In this document: positions 4,132-24,000 of the stretch, in pieces
Position numbering within the stretch: the stretch's first letter is position 1
Layout of the letters: the number at the start of each line of letters is the position of its first letter
Translations under genes and position numbers: made by a program
Notes under the pieces: model-generated
Seen by the model: only the letters and a program-made list of their open reading frames with translations
Databases searched by the model: none
Told to the model about the DNA's origin: nothing
Source of the DNA: Promethearchaeota archaeon
GTDB lineage: Archaea; Asgardarchaeota; Lokiarchaeia; Sigyniarchaeales; SOKP01
Assembly (NCBI GenBank): GCA_019058365.1
Contig: JAHPZE010000005.1
Location: 225,619 to 249,618 of the forward strand
Length of the DNA stretch: 24,000 nt
Direction: 5' to 3'

Positions 4132-5250
4132 TTAAACGCTAGTTCTATATGCTTTAACTTTTTTTACTAACGCATTTACCTCTTTAGAATGAGAAAATAA
4201 AGCACATGGAGAGCCATTAGTTTCTAATAAATGTTCACTTTCTCGAATTATCTTGAATAATTTGCTATTTAAACCTTCCCTTAATGTATTTTTAGTTAAA
4301 TTATGAGTTGCAATATTAGAAACTGGACAAGGTGTCAAATCACCTAATGGTGTTATATGAGCAAATCCTCTGCCTGCTGAGACACATCCACTCATATATT
4401 CTTCATCTCCGGGAGAATGTATAAGAAATATTTGTTTAGTTTCTCGGTATTGTAAAACTTTTTCTCTGAATTCTTTACTTTCTTCATTAGTAAGCATCAA
4501 TTCTGTATCATTATCTACTGGAATATATTCAAGAAGGAAAGCCAAACGAACACCTTTAGACATCAGATCATCGATATTTTTGGGGTTCATCCAAAATTTT
4601 ACATTTTTTCGATTTATCGTCACTGAAATCCCACTAATCACTCCCTTACTATCTAACTCGTTAATGGTATTAATGGCTTTTTCGTAAACTCCTTCACCTC
4701 TTCGTTTATCAGTTAAATCTTGATCTCCTTCAATACTTACCATTATTATTGTATTTCTTAATCGTTTAAGTTTTTCAATATATTGAGCTTGTAAGATTGT
4801 TCCATTTGTAAAAATCAAGAATAACCTATCTTTGAATTCCTCATTTATTTTTAATAAATCAGGCATTAAGAAAGGTTCCCCACCCGCTATTATAAAAGCA
4901 AACACACCTAGTTCTTTTGCTTCTTGAATTATTTTTATCCATTGTTCCAAAGTTAGTGAATTATTAGTTTTCTGGTAACATAATGTACCTGTTGCTGCGG
5001 CATAGCAACCAGCACATTTAAGATTGCAATTTGACGTTATACTTAATATTAGGAATGGAGGTACTTTTAATCCTTTAAGCAGCTCTTCTCCTCTTATATT
5101 TCGAGACTTTCTATACGCTTTCGCTAATCTTATCATTGTATACATACTTTTTGGATGTTTTAAAATCCAAGGCATGAAGATTTTAGCCATTATTGGATCA
5201 ACTTTCTTTAGAGTGCGGTTAATATAATTAGTATTTTTTTCGTCCATCAT
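4132..5250 (-). CDS. Radical SAM protein with SPASM-like C-terminal Cys cluster
   Basis: It has a CX3CX2C motif (SNCNLKCAGCY), a GGEPF glycine-rich SAM motif, and downstream cysteines (SGCVSAGRGFAHITPLGDLTPCP...SPCALF). Confidence 0.8.
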   Translation of the reverse strand: MMDEKNTNYINRTLKKVDPIMAKIFMPWILKHPKSMYTMIRLAKAYRKSRNIRGEELLKGLKVPPFLILSITSNCNLKCAGCYAAATGTLCYQKTNNSLTLEQWIKIIQEAKELGVFAFIIAGGEPFLMPDLLKINEEFKDRLFLIFTNGTILQAQYIEKLKRLRNTIIMVSIEGDQDLTDKRRGEGVYEKAINTINELDSKGVISGISVTINRKNVKFWMNPKNIDDLMSKGVRLAFLLEYIPVDNDTELMLTNEESKEFREKVLQYRETKQIFLIHSPGDEEYMSGCVSAGRGFAHITPLGDLTPCPVSNIATHNLTKNTLREGLNSKLFKIIRESEHLLETNGSPCALFSHSKEVNALVKKVKAYRTSV

Positions 5251-5500
5251 TTATTCAATTTTCCTTTATCGTATTAGATTATAATTTTTAAATTCATTGT
5301 ATGATTTTAAGGAAAATATTGCTTAACTTATAATTTCAGTAGTCCATTATTTATTAAAAATAGAAGTTTGCTACACAAGTGTTTAAGAAACTCTTTTAAT
5401 CATATTTATAACTATTATCTCATAAGTTTTAAAGAAAGTCTTGTTTTTAGTTTATTTTATATTCAAAAATTTTTATAAGCAATCTAAAATTTTAAAAAAA

Positions 5501-6007
5501 ATGAATAAGCTAAGTGAAAAAAAGGCTGAAGAGAAAGTTCCATTAATAGGAATTGGTCCTAAATTACTAATAATAATGTGCCCATTTTTTGTTTTATTTG
5601 GAGTTTTAACTTCAATTTTTTATCCAATTTTTCAAATCCCGATAAATTTTTATCTATTAGTTATTATTGGATCTATTTTAATAACATTTGGACTTTTTGT
5701 GTTTATATATTCTGAGAGAATTTTAAGTATGGCTTATAATTCATCAGAATTAATCACAATAAAAACTTATGCATATGTAAGACATCCAATGTACGCTTCT
5801 TGGGGTTTAGCAACACTTCCAGGTATTTTCTGCTTACTTAATAGCTGGATTCTCTTCATAATTCTTGTTATATATTATTTATTTGTTAGAATTTTATTAC
5901 AAAAGGAAGAAAGATATTTATTAGAAAAATATGGTAAAAAGTATGTTCATTATATAAAAAATGTGAATGCCTTCTTTCCAAAATTGAAAAAGTATAAACC
6001 AGAATAA
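5501..6007 (+). CDS. ICMT/PEMT-family membrane methyltransferase (isoprenylcysteine carboxyl methyltransferase-like)
   Basis: It has multiple hydrophobic helices and a YAYVRHPMYASWG motif followed by EERYLLEKYGKKY, typical of the ICMT/phospholipid methyltransferase family. I prefer the ATG at 5501 (MNKLSEKK...) over the TTG at 5441 given in the track. Confidence 0.7.
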   Translation: MNKLSEKKAEEKVPLIGIGPKLLIIMCPFFVLFGVLTSIFYPIFQIPINFYLLVIIGSILITFGLFVFIYSERILSMAYNSSELITIKTYAYVRHPMYASWGLATLPGIFCLLNSWILFIILVIYYLFVRILLQKEERYLLEKYGKKYVHYIKNVNAFFPKLKKYKPE

Positions 6008-6016
6008 AATCATTAA

Positions 6017-7465
6017 ATGATTAGCATGGATATCAAATTAAAGTATGCGGTTATTACACTTTGTATAATTTTATTCCAATCAGGTTTAAAGTTAATTGGC
6101 GTGTTAATTACTAGAAGTTTGAGTTTTTTATCTGAAACCGTAGATACTTTAGTAGATATACTGTTTGTCTCTATAACTTTATATTCATTATATTATAGTC
6201 AAAAACCAGCTGATTACGAACATATGTATGGGCATAGTAAAATTGATTCTATTTCAGGATTGATTCAGGGAGTTATATTGATGAACGTTTATGTTGTATT
6301 AATTTATAATGCGATTCAAGTAATTATATTAAGTGAATTTGATATTACAAATCCTGAAATTGGTTTAATTATATTAATTACTTCATTTATTGTAAATTTA
6401 ATTTTCTCTAGAATACTCATTTCAAAAGGAAAGCAACAAAAAAGTATAACCATGGAAATTCAGGGTCTTAACTTATTTCAAGATTCTATTAGAGCTATCA
6501 TAGTTCTATTCAGTTTTATCTTTGCATATTTTAACGTTATTTTTCTTGATCCAATACTTAGTATTGTTCTTTCTGTATGGATAATAATAGGTGCACTTAA
6601 ATTGGCTAAACAAGGTGTTAAAGAACTCACAGATACGAATCCAATAAGTTCAATTATCTTTGAAGAATTAAGACAGAATATTTTTACCTTAGAGCATGTT
6701 ATTGGGGTACATGATATCAAAATACGAACTAGTGGAAAAGCTTTATTTTTAGAAGTTCATTTATCAGTTGAAGATCACATTTCCATTATCCATGCAAATG
6801 AAATCATAAAGTCAATAAGAAGCATGAGTGAGAAGTTATTTCCATTATATGAAGTAGAGTGTATTGTAGAAATGAATCCTATAGCCGGTGAAAAATCAAT
6901 AGGGGAAGGGTTAATAAATCTAATTTTTTCAATGAAATTAGAATATCCAGAAATTCAAGATTTTAAAGATCTTAATATATTTAGAATTGAGAATGAATAC
7001 TTTATTTCTTTAATTGTTATGGTCGATGAAAATCTTTCACTTACCGAAGCGCATGATATATGCTCTAGTTTTGAAGATGAGATAAAAATGGAAGCTCCTT
7101 TAATATCAAGAGTGATTACTCATATTGAAAGCCGACCTCATAGTGCAGTTCTTATACCGAATCAAATAAAATGTGCTGAGGTAGGATCAGAGATGATCCA
7201 ACAAATAAGGAAAGAAGTAGAAGAGGTGCTAAGAGCGCATTCTCAAGTTAAAGGATATCATGGATTAGAATTTTGGGCGACATTGGATTACTGCATCTTA
7301 GAAATTCATGTATTTTTTGCTGGCTCGCTTAATATTTCACGAACACATGAATATATAACAGAATTAGAAATTAAAATTAGAGAAAAATTAGGGATAGATA
7401 ACTTGGATACAATTTTCCTTCATTCTGAACCAATTGAGGGCAGAAAGGAAGGGATTATCTTTTAA
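6017..7465 (+). CDS. Cation diffusion facilitator (CDF) family metal efflux transporter with an extended, repeated cytoplasmic tail
   Basis: TM2 carries DTLVD (DxxxD), followed by YGHSKIDSISGLIQG, and TM5 has a QDSIRA segment. After the membrane domain come three successive ZT_dimer-like segments. The protein is 482 aa, against roughly 300 aa for a typical CDF. Confidence 0.8.
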   Translation: MISMDIKLKYAVITLCIILFQSGLKLIGVLITRSLSFLSETVDTLVDILFVSITLYSLYYSQKPADYEHMYGHSKIDSISGLIQGVILMNVYVVLIYNAIQVIILSEFDITNPEIGLIILITSFIVNLIFSRILISKGKQQKSITMEIQGLNLFQDSIRAIIVLFSFIFAYFNVIFLDPILSIVLSVWIIIGALKLAKQGVKELTDTNPISSIIFEELRQNIFTLEHVIGVHDIKIRTSGKALFLEVHLSVEDHISIIHANEIIKSIRSMSEKLFPLYEVECIVEMNPIAGEKSIGEGLINLIFSMKLEYPEIQDFKDLNIFRIENEYFISLIVMVDENLSLTEAHDICSSFEDEIKMEAPLISRVITHIESRPHSAVLIPNQIKCAEVGSEMIQQIRKEVEEVLRAHSQVKGYHGLEFWATLDYCILEIHVFFAGSLNISRTHEYITELEIKIREKLGIDNLDTIFLHSEPIEGRKEGIIF

Positions 7466-10480: not shown

Positions 10481-12121
10481 CTAATATTCCTCCTTCCCAT
10501 TTTCCCTTATTATGAACTTTTTATTAAAATATATACATGTAAGTCGATTCTTAAAGATCCAATCCTTTCCGAATTCATTCCAATATTCCCTAAACAAATC
10601 ATTAGTAAGAAACTTAGATTTTTCTGCCTTTGCAACTTCTAGAACATATTCATCGGCTTTTGTTCCTGCTGGAGACTCTATTACAATTCGATCTCCAACT
10701 AGTTCTTTATAAAGGCTTCTATCATCCATTTTATGTTTCGTAGAAGCATCTGCTATCATAGTGGGAGTATATCCTACTGAGATAACTGCTCTATGTATTT
10801 TAATGATATTCTCAACCTTCAATTTTTGATTTTCATTCTTATCTAAGTGCAAGATATTTGCTAAATCAACTACGACCATTTTATTGGGATTTTGAACAAT
10901 AATGTTTTCATCTTGATTAATTTTTGTGTCGATTACTTCTTTTTTATTAAATAAAGTATCCAATTCTGAAATTTTTTCTAAGAAATAAGAGTAATCTTCA
11001 GGAGATAAGATTATTTTTGAAGTACTATATCGTTCTAAATCATCTAAACATTTAAAAATCCATTGCTTATATTTATTCCACTCAGCATTGAAGGAAGGCA
11101 TTTCTTCTGATGTGATTTTCTTAGTAGTTCTCTTAATTTCAGATATATTAGGTTTTGGTAATGATGGTTTCTTTTGTATATCTAACTTTTTTAAGATCAT
11201 TTCAAAGTCTAGTTGGTCTGATTCAATTAATTGATAATTTGATATATTCATTTGTTTCCATTCATTTATGAAATTCTCGGGAATACCGTTTTGCCAATGA
11301 TGATTTCGCAAATAATTATAGAGTTTTTGAGGATTATATAACTCTTCTAATTCTAAATGGGCAGGGTTCACTCTTTTGGAGCGAAAATTATGAAGAAGTT
11401 GAATAAATTCTTTTCCAATTTGTCTATTTGTAGTTATAATTATATCATATTCATCTGAAAAATCTTTTAATGCTTTTCGTGGTTTAGATTTTATGTTGTT
11501 AATATCGGGAATATTGATGTCATAATAGCGCCTTGTAAAATCCAAAATTGAATTCCAATATTCTTTATCATACTCAATTAATATTTCGGGAAGCCTTTCC
11601 AAATTTCCGCTTTGATTTAACTCCTTAAAAATTCTACTAGCAACAATCTTAATTTTTTGAATGTTTTCTTGTAAGAGAGCTTCATCTTGCGATGTTGAGA
11701 TAAGATACTTTTCAAATTCTAAGTCAGAATCATCAATATCATAATTTAGAAATTGATTATTCTTCTTATTAAAGAAAATAAATCTACTCCCGTTTGCTAA
11801 ACTGCCAATATTTTCATTTGAATTTATCACACATCGAATCCCTTCTAAATTCATTAGTTCGTTCACTTTATCTCGATTTGCATTATATATAAAATAAAGG
11901 GTGGGATTTTGAGAATAAGAATTGGTTGACTCAAACTCCAATATTTCTTTAAGGTTGTGTAGGGCTGTAGATTCAAGATCAACAACGTTATATCCTGCGG
12001 TAAAAATTTCAAGACCATGAAGGTGCTTCATATCAATATAGGGAAATATCACTAGATTTCTCTGTTGAAAAAAAAGAATATTTAAAAACTCTGGTCGAAT
12101 GAAATCTGAGCTTGTATCCAT
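10481..12121 (-). CDS. 546-aa protein with C-terminal NYN / Zc3h12a-like (PIN-like) ribonuclease domain; N-terminal 410 aa unknown
   Basis: The C-terminal 133 aa (nt 10484-10882) contain VVVDLANIL, TKADEYVLEVA and FLTNDLFRE. These parallel the Regnase-1 NYN motifs VVIDGSNVA, CYDDRFIV and VVSNDTYRD, so the acidic catalytic positions appear to be retained. A GGTGAAGGA ribosome-binding site lies in the 22-nt spacer after the GTPase gene. Confidence 0.7.
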   Translation of the reverse strand: MDTSSDFIRPEFLNILFFQQRNLVIFPYIDMKHLHGLEIFTAGYNVVDLESTALHNLKEILEFESTNSYSQNPTLYFIYNANRDKVNELMNLEGIRCVINSNENIGSLANGSRFIFFNKKNNQFLNYDIDDSDLEFEKYLISTSQDEALLQENIQKIKIVASRIFKELNQSGNLERLPEILIEYDKEYWNSILDFTRRYYDINIPDINNIKSKPRKALKDFSDEYDIIITTNRQIGKEFIQLLHNFRSKRVNPAHLELEELYNPQKLYNYLRNHHWQNGIPENFINEWKQMNISNYQLIESDQLDFEMILKKLDIQKKPSLPKPNISEIKRTTKKITSEEMPSFNAEWNKYKQWIFKCLDDLERYSTSKIILSPEDYSYFLEKISELDTLFNKKEVIDTKINQDENIIVQNPNKMVVVDLANILHLDKNENQKLKVENIIKIHRAVISVGYTPTMIADASTKHKMDDRSLYKELVGDRIVIESPAGTKADEYVLEVAKAEKSKFLTNDLFREYWNEFGKDWIFKNRLTCIYFNKKFIIRENGKEEY

Positions 12122-12143: not shown

Positions 12144-12806
12144 TTATTCTTTAAAATAGTTAAAAATAACTTGAAGTATTAAATCCTTAAAACTTTGTAC
12201 AACATTCTTTCCTTGCAATGCCTCAGCTGGATAAATTATATATGATCCATCTGGATATCTCTCTTGAAGCGGAAGCCCTAATTGAAGTTTAAAATCTTGA
12301 ACGGGGATTGCATCTTTTAAGTCTCGTTTATTTAACTGAATTAAATATGGGATTTCTTTTTGTTTGGCAAAACTCACCAGCTCTCGAAAACTTCTTTTGT
12401 TTTGTTCTATTTTTTCTGGATCTGAATCACCGATAAACATAATCCCATCAGCTCCATCCAATACGTATTCTCGAGTGGAAAGGAAACGCTCTTGTCCTGT
12501 ACACGTGACTACATGGCAAATGATATTAAACCTGATATCATGTAAAGTAAATTTAAATAGTAAATAAAGAGAATCTTCCCATAATGTCCTTCCTTCAGTA
12601 GTTTCAATTGAATACCCATGAGTTAGTTTGAGTAAATCGAACTTTTCACGTAATCTGAAGAAATTGGTGGTTTTTCCACTTTCTCCAGGCCCCCAATAGA
12701 CTATCTTGAACTGGATCATATTTTCTGTATCATTAAAATCAAAATCTTCGCTTACCTCAACTTTTACCTTATCTAACTTACCTAGATTTCTCTGTTGTAA
12801 TCCCAT
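12144..12806 (-). CDS. MglA-like small Ras-superfamily GTPase
   Basis: The P-loop is KIVYWGPGESGKTTN, G3 is TCTGQ (Thr in place of Asp, as in MglA TxxGQ), and G4 is NKRD. The overall block order matches Myxococcus MglA (KIVYYGPGLCGKTTN...TVPGQ...NKRD). An AGGTGAT ribosome-binding site lies in the 23-nt spacer. Confidence 0.85.
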   Translation of the reverse strand: MGLQQRNLGKLDKVKVEVSEDFDFNDTENMIQFKIVYWGPGESGKTTNFFRLREKFDLLKLTHGYSIETTEGRTLWEDSLYLLFKFTLHDIRFNIICHVVTCTGQERFLSTREYVLDGADGIMFIGDSDPEKIEQNKRSFRELVSFAKQKEIPYLIQLNKRDLKDAIPVQDFKLQLGLPLQERYPDGSYIIYPAEALQGKNVVQSFKDLILQVIFNYFKE

Positions 12807-15633: not shown

Positions 15634-16557
15634 TTAAATAACTTCTAATATTGTTCTTTTCGTAGAACTAAGCTCTTTTTCATTAGAATAAGTATATTCT
15701 TTTATTATTACATTGGATAATTTGATACTATTACCATCTTCAATCTTTTTAAAGCATTCCACAGCTTGCAACCCCCAAATATTAACTCTAATTGAGCTTG
15801 TATCATCGCTTAAAATGAACTTCAATAGAAAAGATTTCTCACCATTCTTTAATGTTAATTCTTTAAATTCTTGAACTTGAACAATACCCTTGACAAAATG
15901 TATAAAACCTTCCTTACTATATAATTCCTCTATGGTGAATTTAGAGGAGCCTGGTTTAGAACCCTTTTTTTCAATAGACTTGGAGTGATCCACATTCTTA
16001 ACTTCGGGTAAAAAAATTCCCTTTGGAGCCAATAATAGCTTTCCTTGCTTACTTAAATGCACTTCTAAATTATCCTTAATTCCTTTTTTAGAATAAGCTC
16101 CAACAACTTGGATAACCTCTCCTGTCTGAAAAAATTGATTAGAAATAATCTCTGTTTGGTCGTTCCACAACACAACCTTAACACAATCAGATTGATCACA
16201 AATTTGAAATGAGCCAACTGTTCCTAGAGTACCATCTTTCCTTAAAAATTCTTTTTTCCCATGAATTTCAATTATCCTTCCCGCTATGACAATATTTCCC
16301 ATATTTTCAGTAATATTAGAGATAGGTATTGCGAAGTCATTATAATCTATAATATCTTCTGTTATGCGATCTAAAATCTCATTATTTTCTGAAGAATCAA
16401 CTTTGACTCCATTCTCTTTTGCTATTAAATATAAAATTGTTTTTTTATTCATGGATCCTTGGAATTCAATTTCTTTTTCATTGATTTGCGCCATAAGTTC
16501 TTCCTCACTAATTCCAGCATCCAACAACGCCTGATAAATTTCTTCAGTTCTTTCCAC
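15634..16557 (-). CDS. RPA-like single-stranded DNA-binding protein (two OB folds, N-terminal helical domain)
   Basis: It starts at a GTG. The N-terminus (EEIYQALLDAGISEEELMAQINEKEIEFQGSMNKKTILYLIAKENGV) resembles archaeal replication factor A N-termini. Two OB-like units follow (IVIAGRIIEI...VKVVLWNDQ and FVKGIVQV...IRVNIWG). Confidence 0.6.
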   Translation of the reverse strand: MERTEEIYQALLDAGISEEELMAQINEKEIEFQGSMNKKTILYLIAKENGVKVDSSENNEILDRITEDIIDYNDFAIPISNITENMGNIVIAGRIIEIHGKKEFLRKDGTLGTVGSFQICDQSDCVKVVLWNDQTEIISNQFFQTGEVIQVVGAYSKKGIKDNLEVHLSKQGKLLLAPKGIFLPEVKNVDHSKSIEKKGSKPGSSKFTIEELYSKEGFIHFVKGIVQVQEFKELTLKNGEKSFLLKFILSDDTSSIRVNIWGLQAVECFKKIEDGNSIKLSNVIIKEYTYSNEKELSSTKRTILEVI

Positions 16558-17478: not shown

Positions 17479-18573
17479 TTAGAGAAGATGATCTAATGTA
17501 ATTTGGAGTTTTCGCGATTTTTGTCTCTGATGGATAAAAAATTCCCTAGAAGTAGTATAATTTTTTTCAAACATATCCAAGTTTTTCTCAACACGTTCTT
17601 TATTGAGATAATGTTCTTCACATAATAAAGATAATACTCTTGCTTTATTTGCTGGATTCCAAAATATATTGTCAATTTGTTCATTTATATCAGGAAACAA
17701 AAATATTTTTCTCACTTTTTTTATTATAACAGGATTTAACTCACTAAAATCGTAATTATTATATTCTTTTAGAATAAGGGTCTCAATGGATTTGTATTTT
17801 CGAATAAGTTGTAATGCTTTTTTTGATCCAATACCATCAATCCCTGGAAAATAATCGATACCAACTAATATCCCAATATCAATAAGTTGAAAAATTGAAA
17901 TCCCTAAATTCTTTAAATTCTTCTGTAAATCAATTGAGACTGGTTGTATCTTTTGGTATCTCCATTTTCCCTGAATTTTCCTTTTTAACGATTTCGAGAG
18001 ATTTTGAATAACATAAGGGCATCCAAATAAGAGTGAATCGAAATCTTGGGAATTTGAGAAATTTGCGATTTTTTGTTTTACTAAGAATGCACATTGAGAT
18101 TCTGCCGAAGCGGGAGAATCTATATAAGGAATACCCAAAGCCCCCAGAAGTTGTTTGGATTCTTCCATTATATTCTGCCACATATATTCTTTACTTAAGG
18201 CAATTTGTCTTGCTAAATCTCTATCATTCTTTCTTAAAGCTTGCTTATACCATTTTTGAATAAAAAGAAAATCTTTAAGTTGATCTTTTGTAATCACTTT
18301 TTTCAGTACAGAAACTTTTCCATCAAAACAAAAAATAGGAAATATTCTCTTACTATAATAAAAATTCACTCGATACAACAAACCATATAAGTGTGATATT
18401 GGTCGCTGAGTTCGGTCTAAAATTAATCCCGCGTCAGTTCCGTTTGAGCTTTTGCGCCTAAAGTTGAACAATCCCATTATGATATTCGGAGCATCAATCG
18501 CTATAATTTTACACTGTAAATCTTGATATTCAAGTTGCTTTCGAATTATAATGTTTTGAAGTTTAACTCCCAT
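17479..18573 (-). CDS. fen: Flap endonuclease 1 (FEN-1, XPG/Rad2 family)
   Basis: The N-terminus is MGVKLQNII...LQCKIIAIDAPNI. GLLYRV...FCFDG, SPASAESQCAFL and an H3TH region (GIDGIGSKKALQLIRKY) are present. The C-terminal QITLDHLL (17482-17505) fits the PCNA-interacting PIP box QxxLxxLL. Confidence 0.9.
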   Translation of the reverse strand: MGVKLQNIIIRKQLEYQDLQCKIIAIDAPNIIMGLFNFRRKSSNGTDAGLILDRTQRPISHLYGLLYRVNFYYSKRIFPIFCFDGKVSVLKKVITKDQLKDFLFIQKWYKQALRKNDRDLARQIALSKEYMWQNIMEESKQLLGALGIPYIDSPASAESQCAFLVKQKIANFSNSQDFDSLLFGCPYVIQNLSKSLKRKIQGKWRYQKIQPVSIDLQKNLKNLGISIFQLIDIGILVGIDYFPGIDGIGSKKALQLIRKYKSIETLILKEYNNYDFSELNPVIIKKVRKIFLFPDINEQIDNIFWNPANKARVLSLLCEEHYLNKERVEKNLDMFEKNYTTSREFFIHQRQKSRKLQITLDHLL

Positions 18574-22730: not shown

Positions 22731-23186
22731 TTAAGAATTCATTAATGCTTTTGCATTATTTTGCCAATCGTTAATTGTCTTTGCTGAAGCTCCTGAGATA
22801 CTTGCTGAAAGTTCCTCTGGATCTGCTGATAATAAATCTGAAATTGTTTTTATCCCCTGAGAGTTTAAATTCTCTACTGCTCCCTTTCCGATACCTTTCA
22901 CTTGAATTAAAGGAACTTCTTCACTTGATTGTTGATTCGAAGCGTCATTAGATTCTTGTTTTTCATCATCTTCATATAAAGTTTCAACTTCAAAGTCTAA
23001 TCCTGGCGATTCAGGAGGTTCTACTTTATCTGTGTCAGCAACTCCTGCTCCTGTAATATAGAACTCTGCTTCTTCTGGTGGCAAATCTGGGGCATCTACT
23101 ATTACAGCTCTACGTTTCAATGAATTATTAGAAGAAAATCCTTTTGTTTTAAACATGACACGAAAGTGGCATCCGTGTGCTACTAT
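22731..23186 (-). CDS. radA: RadA C-terminal segment (in +1 frame relative to the N-terminal segment), followed by an acidic linker and a second HhH domain
   Basis: From 23186 this frame reads IVAHGCHFRVMFKTKGFSSNNSLKRRAVIVDAPDLPPEEAEFYITGAGVAD, the conserved RadA/Rad51 C-terminal block. Next comes an acidic stretch (DFEVETLYEDDEKQESNDAS), then LIQVKGIGKGAVENLNSQGIKTISDLLSADPEEL. The track reports only the part from the internal ATG at 23156. Confidence 0.8.
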   Translation of the reverse strand: MVAHGCHFRVMFKTKGFSSNNSLKRRAVIVDAPDLPPEEAEFYITGAGVADTDKVEPPESPGLDFEVETLYEDDEKQESNDASNQQSSEEVPLIQVKGIGKGAVENLNSQGIKTISDLLSADPEELSASISGASAKTINDWQNNAKALMNS

Positions 23187-23217
23187 TTAGAAGTGATTTA
23201 TGAAATATAAAATCACA
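23187..23217 (-). other. 31-nt intervening sequence inside radA (hairpin; candidate BHB-type mRNA intron, or a frameshifting insertion)
   Basis: The minus strand reads TGTGATTTTATATTTCATAAATCACTTCTAA. It lies exactly between the AAT (Asn of GGN) and ATA (Ile of IVAH) codons. Its length is not a multiple of 3. It contains a 7-bp inverted repeat, GTGATTT/AAATCAC. Confidence 0.6.
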
Positions 23218-24000
23218 ATTCCCTCCTATCGCGTCATCAGCTGAAAACATTCCCATCATTTTGGTGGCGACTTGATTTGTCAATAAAACAGCGCAATTAT
23301 AAGTTTCTGCAATACGGGATAATCCATGAATCATATTATTTAGAGCTGCTTGTCGAGGCGCCAGTTTTCCGATTCCAATATATTCTGCCCTCAATAATGC
23401 CATTAAGCTGTCAATTACTATGAGTCGCACATTTCGAGTCTTACAGAGTGTTTCTGCTTTTTGAATCATTTGAGATTGATGATCTGAAGAATAGATTCTG
23501 GCATGAAATATTTTTGAAAGCACATCCTTAGGATTCAATTCAAATCTTTTGGCAATTCGTTTAATCTTCTCTTTTGAAAAGGTATTTTCAGTATCAATGT
23601 AGGCGACAGAACCACTAATTCCCTCCCTCCTCTCTGGTAATTGCACTGTAACTGATAACGTGTGAGCCAATGCTGTTTTTCCAGACTTAAATGGTCCATA
23701 CACTTCTGTTAGTTTTCCAGTTTGAAATCCTCCTCCTAAGATGCAATTTAGTTCCGCAGAACCGGTTGTAAAATATTCGACATTTTCATCAATCTTAGCC
23801 GCAGGAGTAAAATCAGTCATACCTAGTGCGTTTCTTGCATTCCAGATGAGTTTTTTAGCAGTCTTATCACCTAATCCATCAATTGTAGCAACAGTTGAAT
23901 GAGGACTCATTGCTAAAGCTTCTGCTGTGCTTATACCATTCTCTTGTAGTAGTTTTATCTGGCGTGAGTTAATTCCTTTTACTTGATCTAAATCTGCCAT
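23218..24000 (-). CDS. radA: RadA/Rad51-family recombinase, N-terminal segment (HhH domain plus ATPase core up to ...AIGGN)
   Basis: The ATG is at 24000-23998, at the window edge. The N-terminal HhH is LDQVKGINSRQIKLLQENGISTAEAL, Walker A is GPFKSGKT, Walker B is RLIVIDSLMAL, and the L2 region is LTNQVATKMMGMFSADDAIGGN. After GGN this frame loses RadA similarity and stops at 23149. Confidence 0.9.

Follow-up and report, generated by a model that had tools for sequence, protein, structure and literature searches.

How a full-length RadA protein could arise from a gene whose two parts lie in different reading frames is the question raised by a stretch of 24,000 nucleotides (nt) from a Promethearchaeota archaeon (assembly GCA_019058365.1, contig JAHPZE010000005.1, positions 225,619 to 249,618 of the forward strand), referred to here as the window. 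The window is AT-rich (29.7% G+C), and its radA gene occupies the minus strand from 24000 to 22731. Uninterrupted reading from 24000 gives an open reading frame (ORF) of 283 codons with a stop at 23149 and the C-terminal end GGNCDFIFHKSLLNSSTRMPLSCHV. The match of this ORF to RadA/Rad51 ends at ...MMGMFSADDAIGGN, with GGA GGG AAT as its last codons (the Asn codon is 23220-23218), and an unrelated tail, CDFIFHKSLLNSSTRMPLSCHV, follows. From 23186 the gene continues in the +1 frame relative to the first part as ATA GTA GCA CAC GGA TGC CAC TTT (IVAHGCHF); the protein there reads IVAHGCHFRVMFKTKGFSSNNSLKRRAVIVDAPDLPPEEAEF... and ends at a stop codon at 22733-22731. Between the two parts lie the 31 nt from 23217 to 23187, TGTGATTTTATATTTCATAAATCACTTCTAA. 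The best explanation, to which we assign a probability of about 0.85, is that these 31 nt would be excised by EndA, the tRNA splicing endonuclease, as a bulge-helix-bulge (BHB) intron within the radA coding sequence, and that the exons would be ligated by RtcB. An endonuclease-spliced, relaxed BHB intron in the mRNA had been proposed in a sequence-only reading of this DNA, whose coordinates and sequence claims for the split all agree with the window. The recurrence of the insert, its covariation and the geometry of its junctions support this proposal, and from them we infer splicing. The parts of the gene are as follows.

23218-24000, minus strand: radA exon 1 (Met1-Asn261), with the N-terminal helix-hairpin-helix (HhH) domain and, up to and including the L2 loop, most of the RecA/Rad51 ATPase core; its last residues are AIGGN
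23187-23217, minus strand: predicted 31-nt BHB-type intron, UGUGAUUUUAUAUUUCAUAAAUCACUUCUAA; covariance-model match of 57 bits, E 1e-10
22731-23186, minus strand: radA exon 2 (Ile262-Ser412 plus the stop codon 22733-22731), IVAHGCHFRVMFKTKG..., with an acidic linker and a C-terminal HhH domain

The interrupted radA gene and its recurrent insert

Deletion of 23217-23187 in silico yields a single ORF of 412 residues with the junction GGN^IVAH (the caret marks the junction here and below), as the sequence-only reading had claimed, and the product is full-length compared with uninterrupted orthologs. The Pfam Rad51 domain spans residues 75-312 of the spliced product without a break (E 7.8e-70), with an HhH domain at either end. 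The 412-residue protein is 75-89% identical, at 99-100% query coverage, to the roughly 120 uninterrupted Lokiarchaeial RadA sequences among the matches listed; those with a named source are mostly RadA of Lokiarchaeota, Promethearchaeota and other Asgard metagenome-assembled genomes (MAGs). Exon 1 is 80-89% identical to orthologs, and tblastn segments stop at residue 261 in all intron-bearing loci. Residues G259, G260, N261, I262, A264, H265, G266, C267, H268 and F269 are invariant in an alignment of 12 RadA sequences, and in an alignment with human RAD51 the junction corresponds to GGN^IIAH. We take this position to be the end of the L2 loop.

The spliced product has a second HhH domain (HHH_5) at residues 354-404 (22758-22910, minus strand), after the acidic variable linker. 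This domain is common to all close Lokiarchaeial RadA orthologs, whereas canonical RadA/Rad51 has an N-terminal HhH domain only.

The insert recurs at the same position in related genes. In one survey, species-representative genomes were scanned, giving 52 radA loci that were then compared by tblastn. In seven of these loci (Loki_b32, two contigs of Loki_b31, ABR02, CSMAG_2517, one binchicken MAG and 33X4), the match is interrupted after residue 261 by 31 nt and resumes at residue 262 in the +1 frame. In a second survey, a degenerate pattern consisting of 42 nt of exon 1, any 10-40 nt and 23 nt of exon 2 was run against metagenome contigs; it matched 46 of them, and the insert is 31 nt long in all but one (30 nt). 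With the window and the 53 others (7 from the genome collection and 46 metagenome contigs), 54 contigs from more than ten independent assemblies represent 42 distinct junction variants (the insert being 30 nt long in one and 31 nt in the other 41) and 37 distinct inserts. The sequence-only reading had named an alignment of radA from related genomes as a check on its proposal; among related genes, the insert recurs at the codon boundary 261/262, covaries, and is absent from other alleles.

Alleles that share 88-98% nucleotide identity with the interrupted genes lack exactly these 31 nt (GGCGGAAAT^ATAGT...), and removal of the insert reproduces the junction of 40 distinct intronless sequences. 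The ambiguity of the borders is 1 nt in most variants, in which intron position 1 is A, as is exon-2 position 1; it is zero in the window. A transposon-like insertion was considered and rejected, as no target-site duplication restores the intronless sequence.

A covariance model (R1) built from the family was applied to the window (filters switched off) and to related loci totalling 0.53 Mb. In the 24 kb of the window, the runner-up to the radA site scores 15 bits (E 0.15) at 6978-7010, antisense inside a cation-efflux gene, and was taken as a chance match. No further copy of the intron outside radA was scored in the window or in the 0.53 Mb, so the radA intron is not a dispersed element. Rfam (at gathering thresholds) and ARAGORN gave no match on the window.

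Selection on both exons bears on whether the gene is intact. Mean pairwise ratios of nonsynonymous to synonymous divergence (pN/pS) were computed over two stretches next to the insert, 100 codons at the end of exon 1 and 66 codons at the start of exon 2. They are 0.148 and 0.146, respectively, in intron-bearing genes and 0.132 and 0.155 in intronless genes, at a near-saturated synonymous divergence (pS 0.76-0.83). Since the ratio for exon 2 matches that of intronless genes, exon 2 experiences equal purifying selection and has long been translated in its own frame with the insert present. Inactivation of the gene, or an assembly or sequencing artefact, would account for the outcome of mechanical annotation, which splits radA into ORFs of 283 and 141 residues, and for the two exon-1 stops of contig L063. 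We nevertheless regard it as very improbable. The insert is found at one site in 54 contigs and 42 variants, and L063 is the only intron-bearing contig with stops in either exon. Two of the alternatives raised by the sequence-only reading are excluded on these grounds, an assembly error by the 54 contigs from more than ten independent assemblies, and recent inactivation by the exon 2 pN/pS (0.146 against 0.155 without the intron, at a pS of about 0.76). The stops in L063 lie in frame at residues 180 and 187, where they replace a conserved Gln and Lys (MI(stop)KAEQLC(stop)T), and the rest of the exon is well conserved; this copy is either a pseudogene or affected by sequencing errors.

The 141-residue ORF opens with an ATG at 23156 in the exon-2 frame, as would be expected if the two ORFs were translated separately and assembled into a split protein. 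The ten codons between the insert and this ATG, encoding IVAHGCHFRV, have no start codon before them, and show almost only synonymous variation, with a conservative Val/Ile exchange in a few variants. As these conserved codons precede the first ATG of the ORF, two separately translated polypeptides are ruled out. Alternatively, the ribosome might bypass the 31 nt, and the hairpin in the insert does bear a superficial resemblance to the take-off site of T4 gene 60. However, the take-off codon AAU differs from UAA or CAA, one of which precedes the resume site, and the sole matching AAU, which lies across the 3' junction (A^AU), would resume translation in the wrong frame. A split protein or a translational bypass is therefore scarcely conceivable.

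Predicted RNA fold and junction geometry

The 42 variants, each with 15 nt of either exon, were aligned for analysis of the RNA fold. The covariation and base-contrast statistics given below treat related sequences as independent. The predicted elements of the fold in the window are listed here.

23220-23223, minus strand: central helix H, 5' strand GGGA (exonic); paired in 42 of 42 variants, with the wobble base 23221 purine-only when the intron is present
23189-23192, minus strand: central helix H, 3' strand UUCU (intron positions 26-29); pair types GU/GC, GC/GU, AU/GC/GU and AU
23217-23219, minus strand: 5' 3-nt bulge A-U^U; predicted cut between 23218 and 23217, the junction being fixed by homology
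23186-23188, minus strand: 3' 3-nt bulge A-A^A; predicted cut between 23187 and 23186; AA^A in 41 of 42 variants
23193-23216, minus strand: intron hairpin h'; arms 23216-23207 and 23201-23193, with a 5-nt loop at 23206-23202 (AUUUC)
23179-23232, minus strand: possible imperfect exon-exon outer helix; 23232-23226 (GCGAUAG) with 23185-23179 (UAGUAGC), 5 of 7 pairs in the window

In the central helix of 4 base pairs (bp), GGRA at exon positions -6 to -3 pairs with UYYY at intron positions 26-29, and the four pairs vary among the variants as GU (28) and GC (14); GC (36) and GU (6); AU (35), GC (6) and GU (1); and AU (42). In the window, GGGA and UUCU form two Watson-Crick and two G-U pairs, and this pairing and the bulges AUU and AAA are present as the sequence-only reading described them. 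That reading also placed a single 7-bp helix in the insert. Its pairing of GUGAUUU with AAAUCAC is present, but the family consensus replaces the single helix by stems of 5 and 4 bp (intron positions 2-6 with 21-25 and 8-11 with 17-20), separated by one bulged base and closed by a 5-nt loop. In this hairpin, 91% of the cells are paired and seven of the nine pairs have changes on both sides (for example, GC in 15 variants, CG in 13 and UA in 13). The covariation score is 0.329, compared with 0.171 ± 0.009 in column shuffles (none of 500 as high), and it is 0.09 or lower when the partners are slid by 1-3 columns. RNAalifold independently finds the central helix and the intron hairpin, and the minimum-free-energy fold of most variants includes at least 10 of the 11-13 scored BHB pairs. 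The predicted fold is thus supported by covariation in both the central helix and the intron hairpin, and the proposed BHB-like structure gains from compensatory changes that include an exonic codon wobble base and its intron partner.

This wobble base, the third position of the Gly codon before the Asn codon (23221), faces intron position 27. Across the 42 intron-bearing variants it is A in 35 and G in 7, and never T or C. In the 40 intronless orthologs, it is A in 16, G in 3, T in 15 and C in 6, a pyrimidine in 21 of 40 (Fisher p = 7e-9, uncorrected for phylogeny). With G as the wobble base, six variants have C at intron position 27, and the window alone has U. The contrast at this synonymous site is the strongest single result of the analysis.

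The first codon of exon 2 (Ile, 23184-23186 in the window) is ATA in 24 of 42 intron-bearing variants and in 6 of 40 intronless genes, which favour ATT; this may be a second intron-linked bias at an exonic synonymous site. The hairpin apex (23202-23208 in the window; alignment columns 25-33) is conserved beyond the needs of pairing as A-Y-R-Y-U-U-M-R-U, and all 42 variants have A at intron position 10 and U at positions 15 and 18, a conservation that is not required of a BHB intron.

The two 3-nt bulges, A-U^A (A-U^U in the window) and A-A^A, lie on opposite strands 4 bp apart, and in every variant helices close the 5' bulge (A-U-A/U) on either side. Both junctions required by homology, after 23218 and after 23187, follow the second bulge nucleotide. 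For an archaeal endonuclease crystallised with BHB RNA, the bulge consists of A13-U14-A15, with A15, its third nucleotide, carrying the scissile phosphate (PMC12397907). The junctions inferred from coding evidence and the cut rule of the endonuclease therefore coincide, and the placement of the junctions after the second bulge nucleotide, already pointed out in the sequence-only reading, agrees with the known cleavage between nucleotides 2 and 3.

The coding evidence requires excision, and EndA and RtcB are the presumed enzymes, so that removal at the RNA level by another route, such as a different structure-specific RNase and ligase, has to be weighed; the outer helix of a strict BHB motif is also missing here. 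On the other side, the EndA substrate is matched exactly by the predicted 4-bp helix, the opposite 3-nt bulges and junctions placed behind bulge nucleotide 2, and 31 nt is far below the size of group I or group II introns. In the literature searched, BHB motifs and EndA are the archaeal route for introns of tRNA, rRNA and cbf5 mRNA (PMC8707768, PMC7714728). Excision by other enzymes is accordingly improbable.

Several observations weigh against an EndA-spliced BHB intron. The first concern the exon-side outer helix, h. Although AAA follows the central helix in 41 of 42 variants, the 3' bulge is closed weakly, by an exon-exon helix of ambiguous register. In the contiguous register, which the sequence-only reading had put forward, only 41% of the cells are paired, with no covariation across the 42 variants. 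An offset 7-bp register (GCNAUHG/UHGUNGC), frequent in single-sequence folds, is 84% paired; five of its pairs are accounted for by codon letters that never vary, and its wobble pairs, found in 17 and 19 of 42 intron-bearing variants and in 15 and 14 of 40 intronless genes, are not enriched. A further variant (GCCAU.GGC/GCC.AUGGC), present in some minimum-free-energy folds, was rejected as it shows no selection relative to intronless genes. Overall, no selection on the outer helix was detected in three registers compared with intronless genes. The window variant itself is atypical: its BHB fold has an energy of -4.5 kcal/mol compared with -11.2 kcal/mol for a shifted alternative hairpin of minimum free energy, it has U at intron position 1, where the other 41 variants have A, and it alone combines GGG with UUCU, leaving one central pair as G-U. 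No gene for EndA or RtcB was found in the window or in 50 scanned related loci. Nor was any intron-bearing tRNA found there; ARAGORN detected no tRNA at all in these sequences. Finally, none of the 36 distinct 31-nt inserts closes the exon-1 frame, as a translational frameshift would need.

As the exon-side outer helix is not conserved, the predicted motif is of the relaxed HBh' class rather than the strict hBHBh' class, and the weak outer helix and relaxed class given by the sequence-only reading are upheld. The distinction between strict hBHBh' and relaxed HBh' or hBH motifs is that of Marck and Grosjean (2003), as related in two reviews (PMC6379350, PMC5829648). Relaxed motifs are cut efficiently only by endonucleases of the (αβ)2 or ε2 type (PMC6379350).

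Proposed splicing and the frameshift alternative

In the proposed mechanism, exon positions GGRA and intron positions 26-29 (UYYY) of the pre-mRNA would form the 4-bp helix, and intron positions 2-25 the hairpin, leaving one 3-nt bulge on each strand. EndA, the presumed enzyme and in Asgard archaea of the broad-specificity (αβ)2 type, would cut between nucleotides 2 and 3 of each bulge. RtcB, likewise the presumed enzyme, would ligate the exons to give ...GGN^IVAH... and the 412-residue RadA, with the junction-spanning peptide MMGMFSADDAIGGNIVAHGCHFR. The 31-mer would be released, probably as a circle.

A programmed +1 frameshift would instead read the insert as ten residues (C/S-D-x-I-F-x-x-S-L-L) and shift at CUA-A-AUA to continue with IVAH; in the window it would place CDFIFHKSLL before IVAH. 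Besides the open frame, several points are in its favour. The insert peptide is loosely conserved in appearance, several compensatory changes fall on third codon positions, and extra residues might be tolerated at the insertion point, the end of the flexible L2 loop. The open frame is nonetheless expected by chance: when columns and pairs of the insert alignment were resampled, 5.5% of the inserts contained a stop, and the probability of none in 36 is 0.13. Codons 3 and 7 are hypervariable as amino acids, yet they covary as base pairs. Of the 36 distinct 31-nt inserts, 28 close with a TAA when read in the exon-2 frame, so that a shift would be possible at one position only, and there the P-site codon varies (CUA, CCA, UCA), none of these re-pairs in the +1 frame, and the A-site codon AAU is a common one. 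The conserved structure lies 5' of the shift site, where the ribosome would melt it. A frameshift would also leave unexplained the pairing constraint between exon and intron and the BHB geometry. The in-frame TAA and TAG of the 30-nt insert (contig L097), which leave rescue of that copy to the RNA level, also speak against it, weakly, as that contig may be chimeric. We thus judge the +1 frameshift at CUA-A, named as an alternative by the sequence-only reading, to be quite unlikely.

If radA is spliced as proposed, splicing is obligatory for a functional protein because the intron interrupts the reading frame. It is conceivable, though doubtful, that the intron acts as a switch, such that full-length RadA would be made only upon processing by EndA and RtcB, while unspliced mRNA would give the truncated 283-residue product. 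The conservation of the apical loop beyond pairing and the long retention of the intron beside recombining intronless alleles would fit selection that goes beyond neutral persistence. By analogy, the switch might then be an archaeal counterpart of the RtcB-dependent, frame-switching splicing of XBP1 and HAC1, a similarly speculative notion.

Distribution, known counterparts and surroundings

When 80 RadA sequences are placed in a neighbour-joining tree, those of intron-bearing and of intronless genes are interleaved. The nearest relatives of the RadA of the window (88-89% identity) are intronless, and pairs with up to 96-99% amino-acid identity differ in the presence of the intron. Contigs L089 and L101 share 97.6% nucleotide identity over the 679 nt upstream of the intron site and 81% over the 452 nt downstream. 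An abrupt change of identity at the intron site is seen between intron-bearing and intronless genes in three comparisons (L089 with L101, L061 with L101, and L065 with L103). The gene seems to be a mosaic whose recombination breakpoint lies at the intron or close to it, and the jump in identity at this site suggests homologous recombination as one route by which the presence or absence of the intron has spread. Judged by these sequences, the predicted radA intron is old and patchily distributed. The possibility that near-identical uninterrupted genes (P0121, P0122, P0131 and P0135; 96-99% protein identity) stem from cDNA-derived contigs was rejected: they are genomic intronless alleles because they lie on multi-gene, two-strand contigs and have nucleotide differences of 2-19%. 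The near-identical uninterrupted genes L099-L103 also sit on multi-gene, two-strand contigs and are genomic.

Two intron-bearing contigs are unusual in arrangement. In L097 (246-340, minus strand), the sole 30-nt variant forms a perfect stem of 9 bp, with no bulged base, and carries the TAA and TAG mentioned above. Its exon 2 departs after ...ITAAGI into an unrelated ORF (YFYRKLTVHRKF...TAHEVVEILNDYLSTMTEAVF), and the contig is either chimeric or rearranged. In L038, the region 4431-6112 downstream of the intron-bearing radA holds an ORF of 427 residues rich in CxxC/zinc-ribbon repeats and then a diverged second radA 3' end, an ORF of 102 residues with about 55% identity to residues 285-412; an insertion seems to have duplicated the end of radA. 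Some radA loci with 75-89% identity to the gene of the window (L001, L009, L010, L021, L023, L045 and others) come from MAGs labelled Hermod-, Odin-, Thor- or Hodarchaeota, Bathyarchaeota or Neomarinimicrobiota, labels that probably reflect bin contamination or loose submitter taxonomy.

Protein-coding genes of archaea have yielded few introns of this kind. The BHB intron in cbf5 pre-mRNA was reportedly described by Watanabe in 2002 and Yoshinari in 2006. Like it (Crenarchaeota: Aeropyrum, Sulfolobus; Yokobori 2009, PMC2738675), the radA insert is a short BHB-type intron inside a gene that codes for a protein, in a host with a heteromeric, broad-specificity (αβ)2 EndA (presumed for the radA host), and has a patchy distribution with gain or loss among relatives, while annotation splits the gene or calls a frameshift. 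The two differ in the host gene and in the lineage (Lokiarchaeia of the Asgard archaea, not Crenarchaeota), and have no sequence relationship; moreover, cDNA and in vitro cleavage have confirmed the cbf5 introns, whereas the radA intron is predicted from sequence. With the BHB introns of archaeal tRNA and rRNA it shares the 4-bp central helix, the predicted cut between bulge nucleotides 2 and 3, and helix h', and also the opposite 3-nt bulges, of which the 3' one is weakly closed in radA. Unlike them, its host RNA is an mRNA with no tRNA body to aid recognition, and the exonic strand of its helix is encoded in Gly-Asn codons, so that a synonymous site is constrained.

The BHB intron in the 5' untranslated region (UTR) of HVO_1309 in Haloferax volcanii (Schwarz 2020, PMC7714728), whose removal matters for expression, is likewise a case of EndA acting on mRNA, as proposed for radA. 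It lies in an untranslated leader, in a euryarchaeon with an α'2 EndA, whereas the radA intron interrupts the reading frame. HAC1 and XBP1 mRNAs, processed by IRE1 and a tRNA ligase or RtcB, also have a small intron (26 nt in XBP1) cut by a protein endonuclease at stem-loops and joined by a tRNA ligase, and its removal changes the frame so that the active protein is made. They differ in using IRE1 instead of EndA, in their twin 7-nt loops and in being regulated by stress.

Coding sequences are very rarely interrupted by BHB introns. Introns in endA mRNA of Thaumarchaeota were reportedly described by Tocchini-Valentini in 2011. As of 2020, the cbf5 intron was described as the sole BHB intron reported in mRNA besides the 5'-UTR element of HVO_1309 (PMC7714728). 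Full-text literature searches, with subscription-only papers outside their coverage, gave no prior report of a BHB intron in radA or in any Asgard mRNA, in line with the sequence-only reading, which knew of cases in cbf5 and of none in radA; a 2025 survey of Asgard RadA does not mention the radA intron. It would be the first BHB intron reported in an Asgard protein-coding gene, in a new host gene and a new phylum. If true, protein-coding BHB introns would extend to the closest known relatives of eukaryotes and to an ortholog of Rad51/Dmc1. Gene callers split or truncate radA at this site, which affects completeness estimates, pseudogene counts and RadA/Rad51 phylogenies. The 42 variants, together with both types of allele, form a natural data set on the constraint that a BHB intron places on exon codons, and on its loss or spread by recombination.

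Elsewhere in the window, an Arf-family small GTPase (12144-12806, minus strand) adjoins a protein of 546 residues (10481-12121) with a C-terminal Zc3h12a-like NYN RNase domain. Further genes encode FEN1/XPG (17479-18573) and an OB-fold protein (15634-16557), and the gene content of the window is typical of Asgard archaea.

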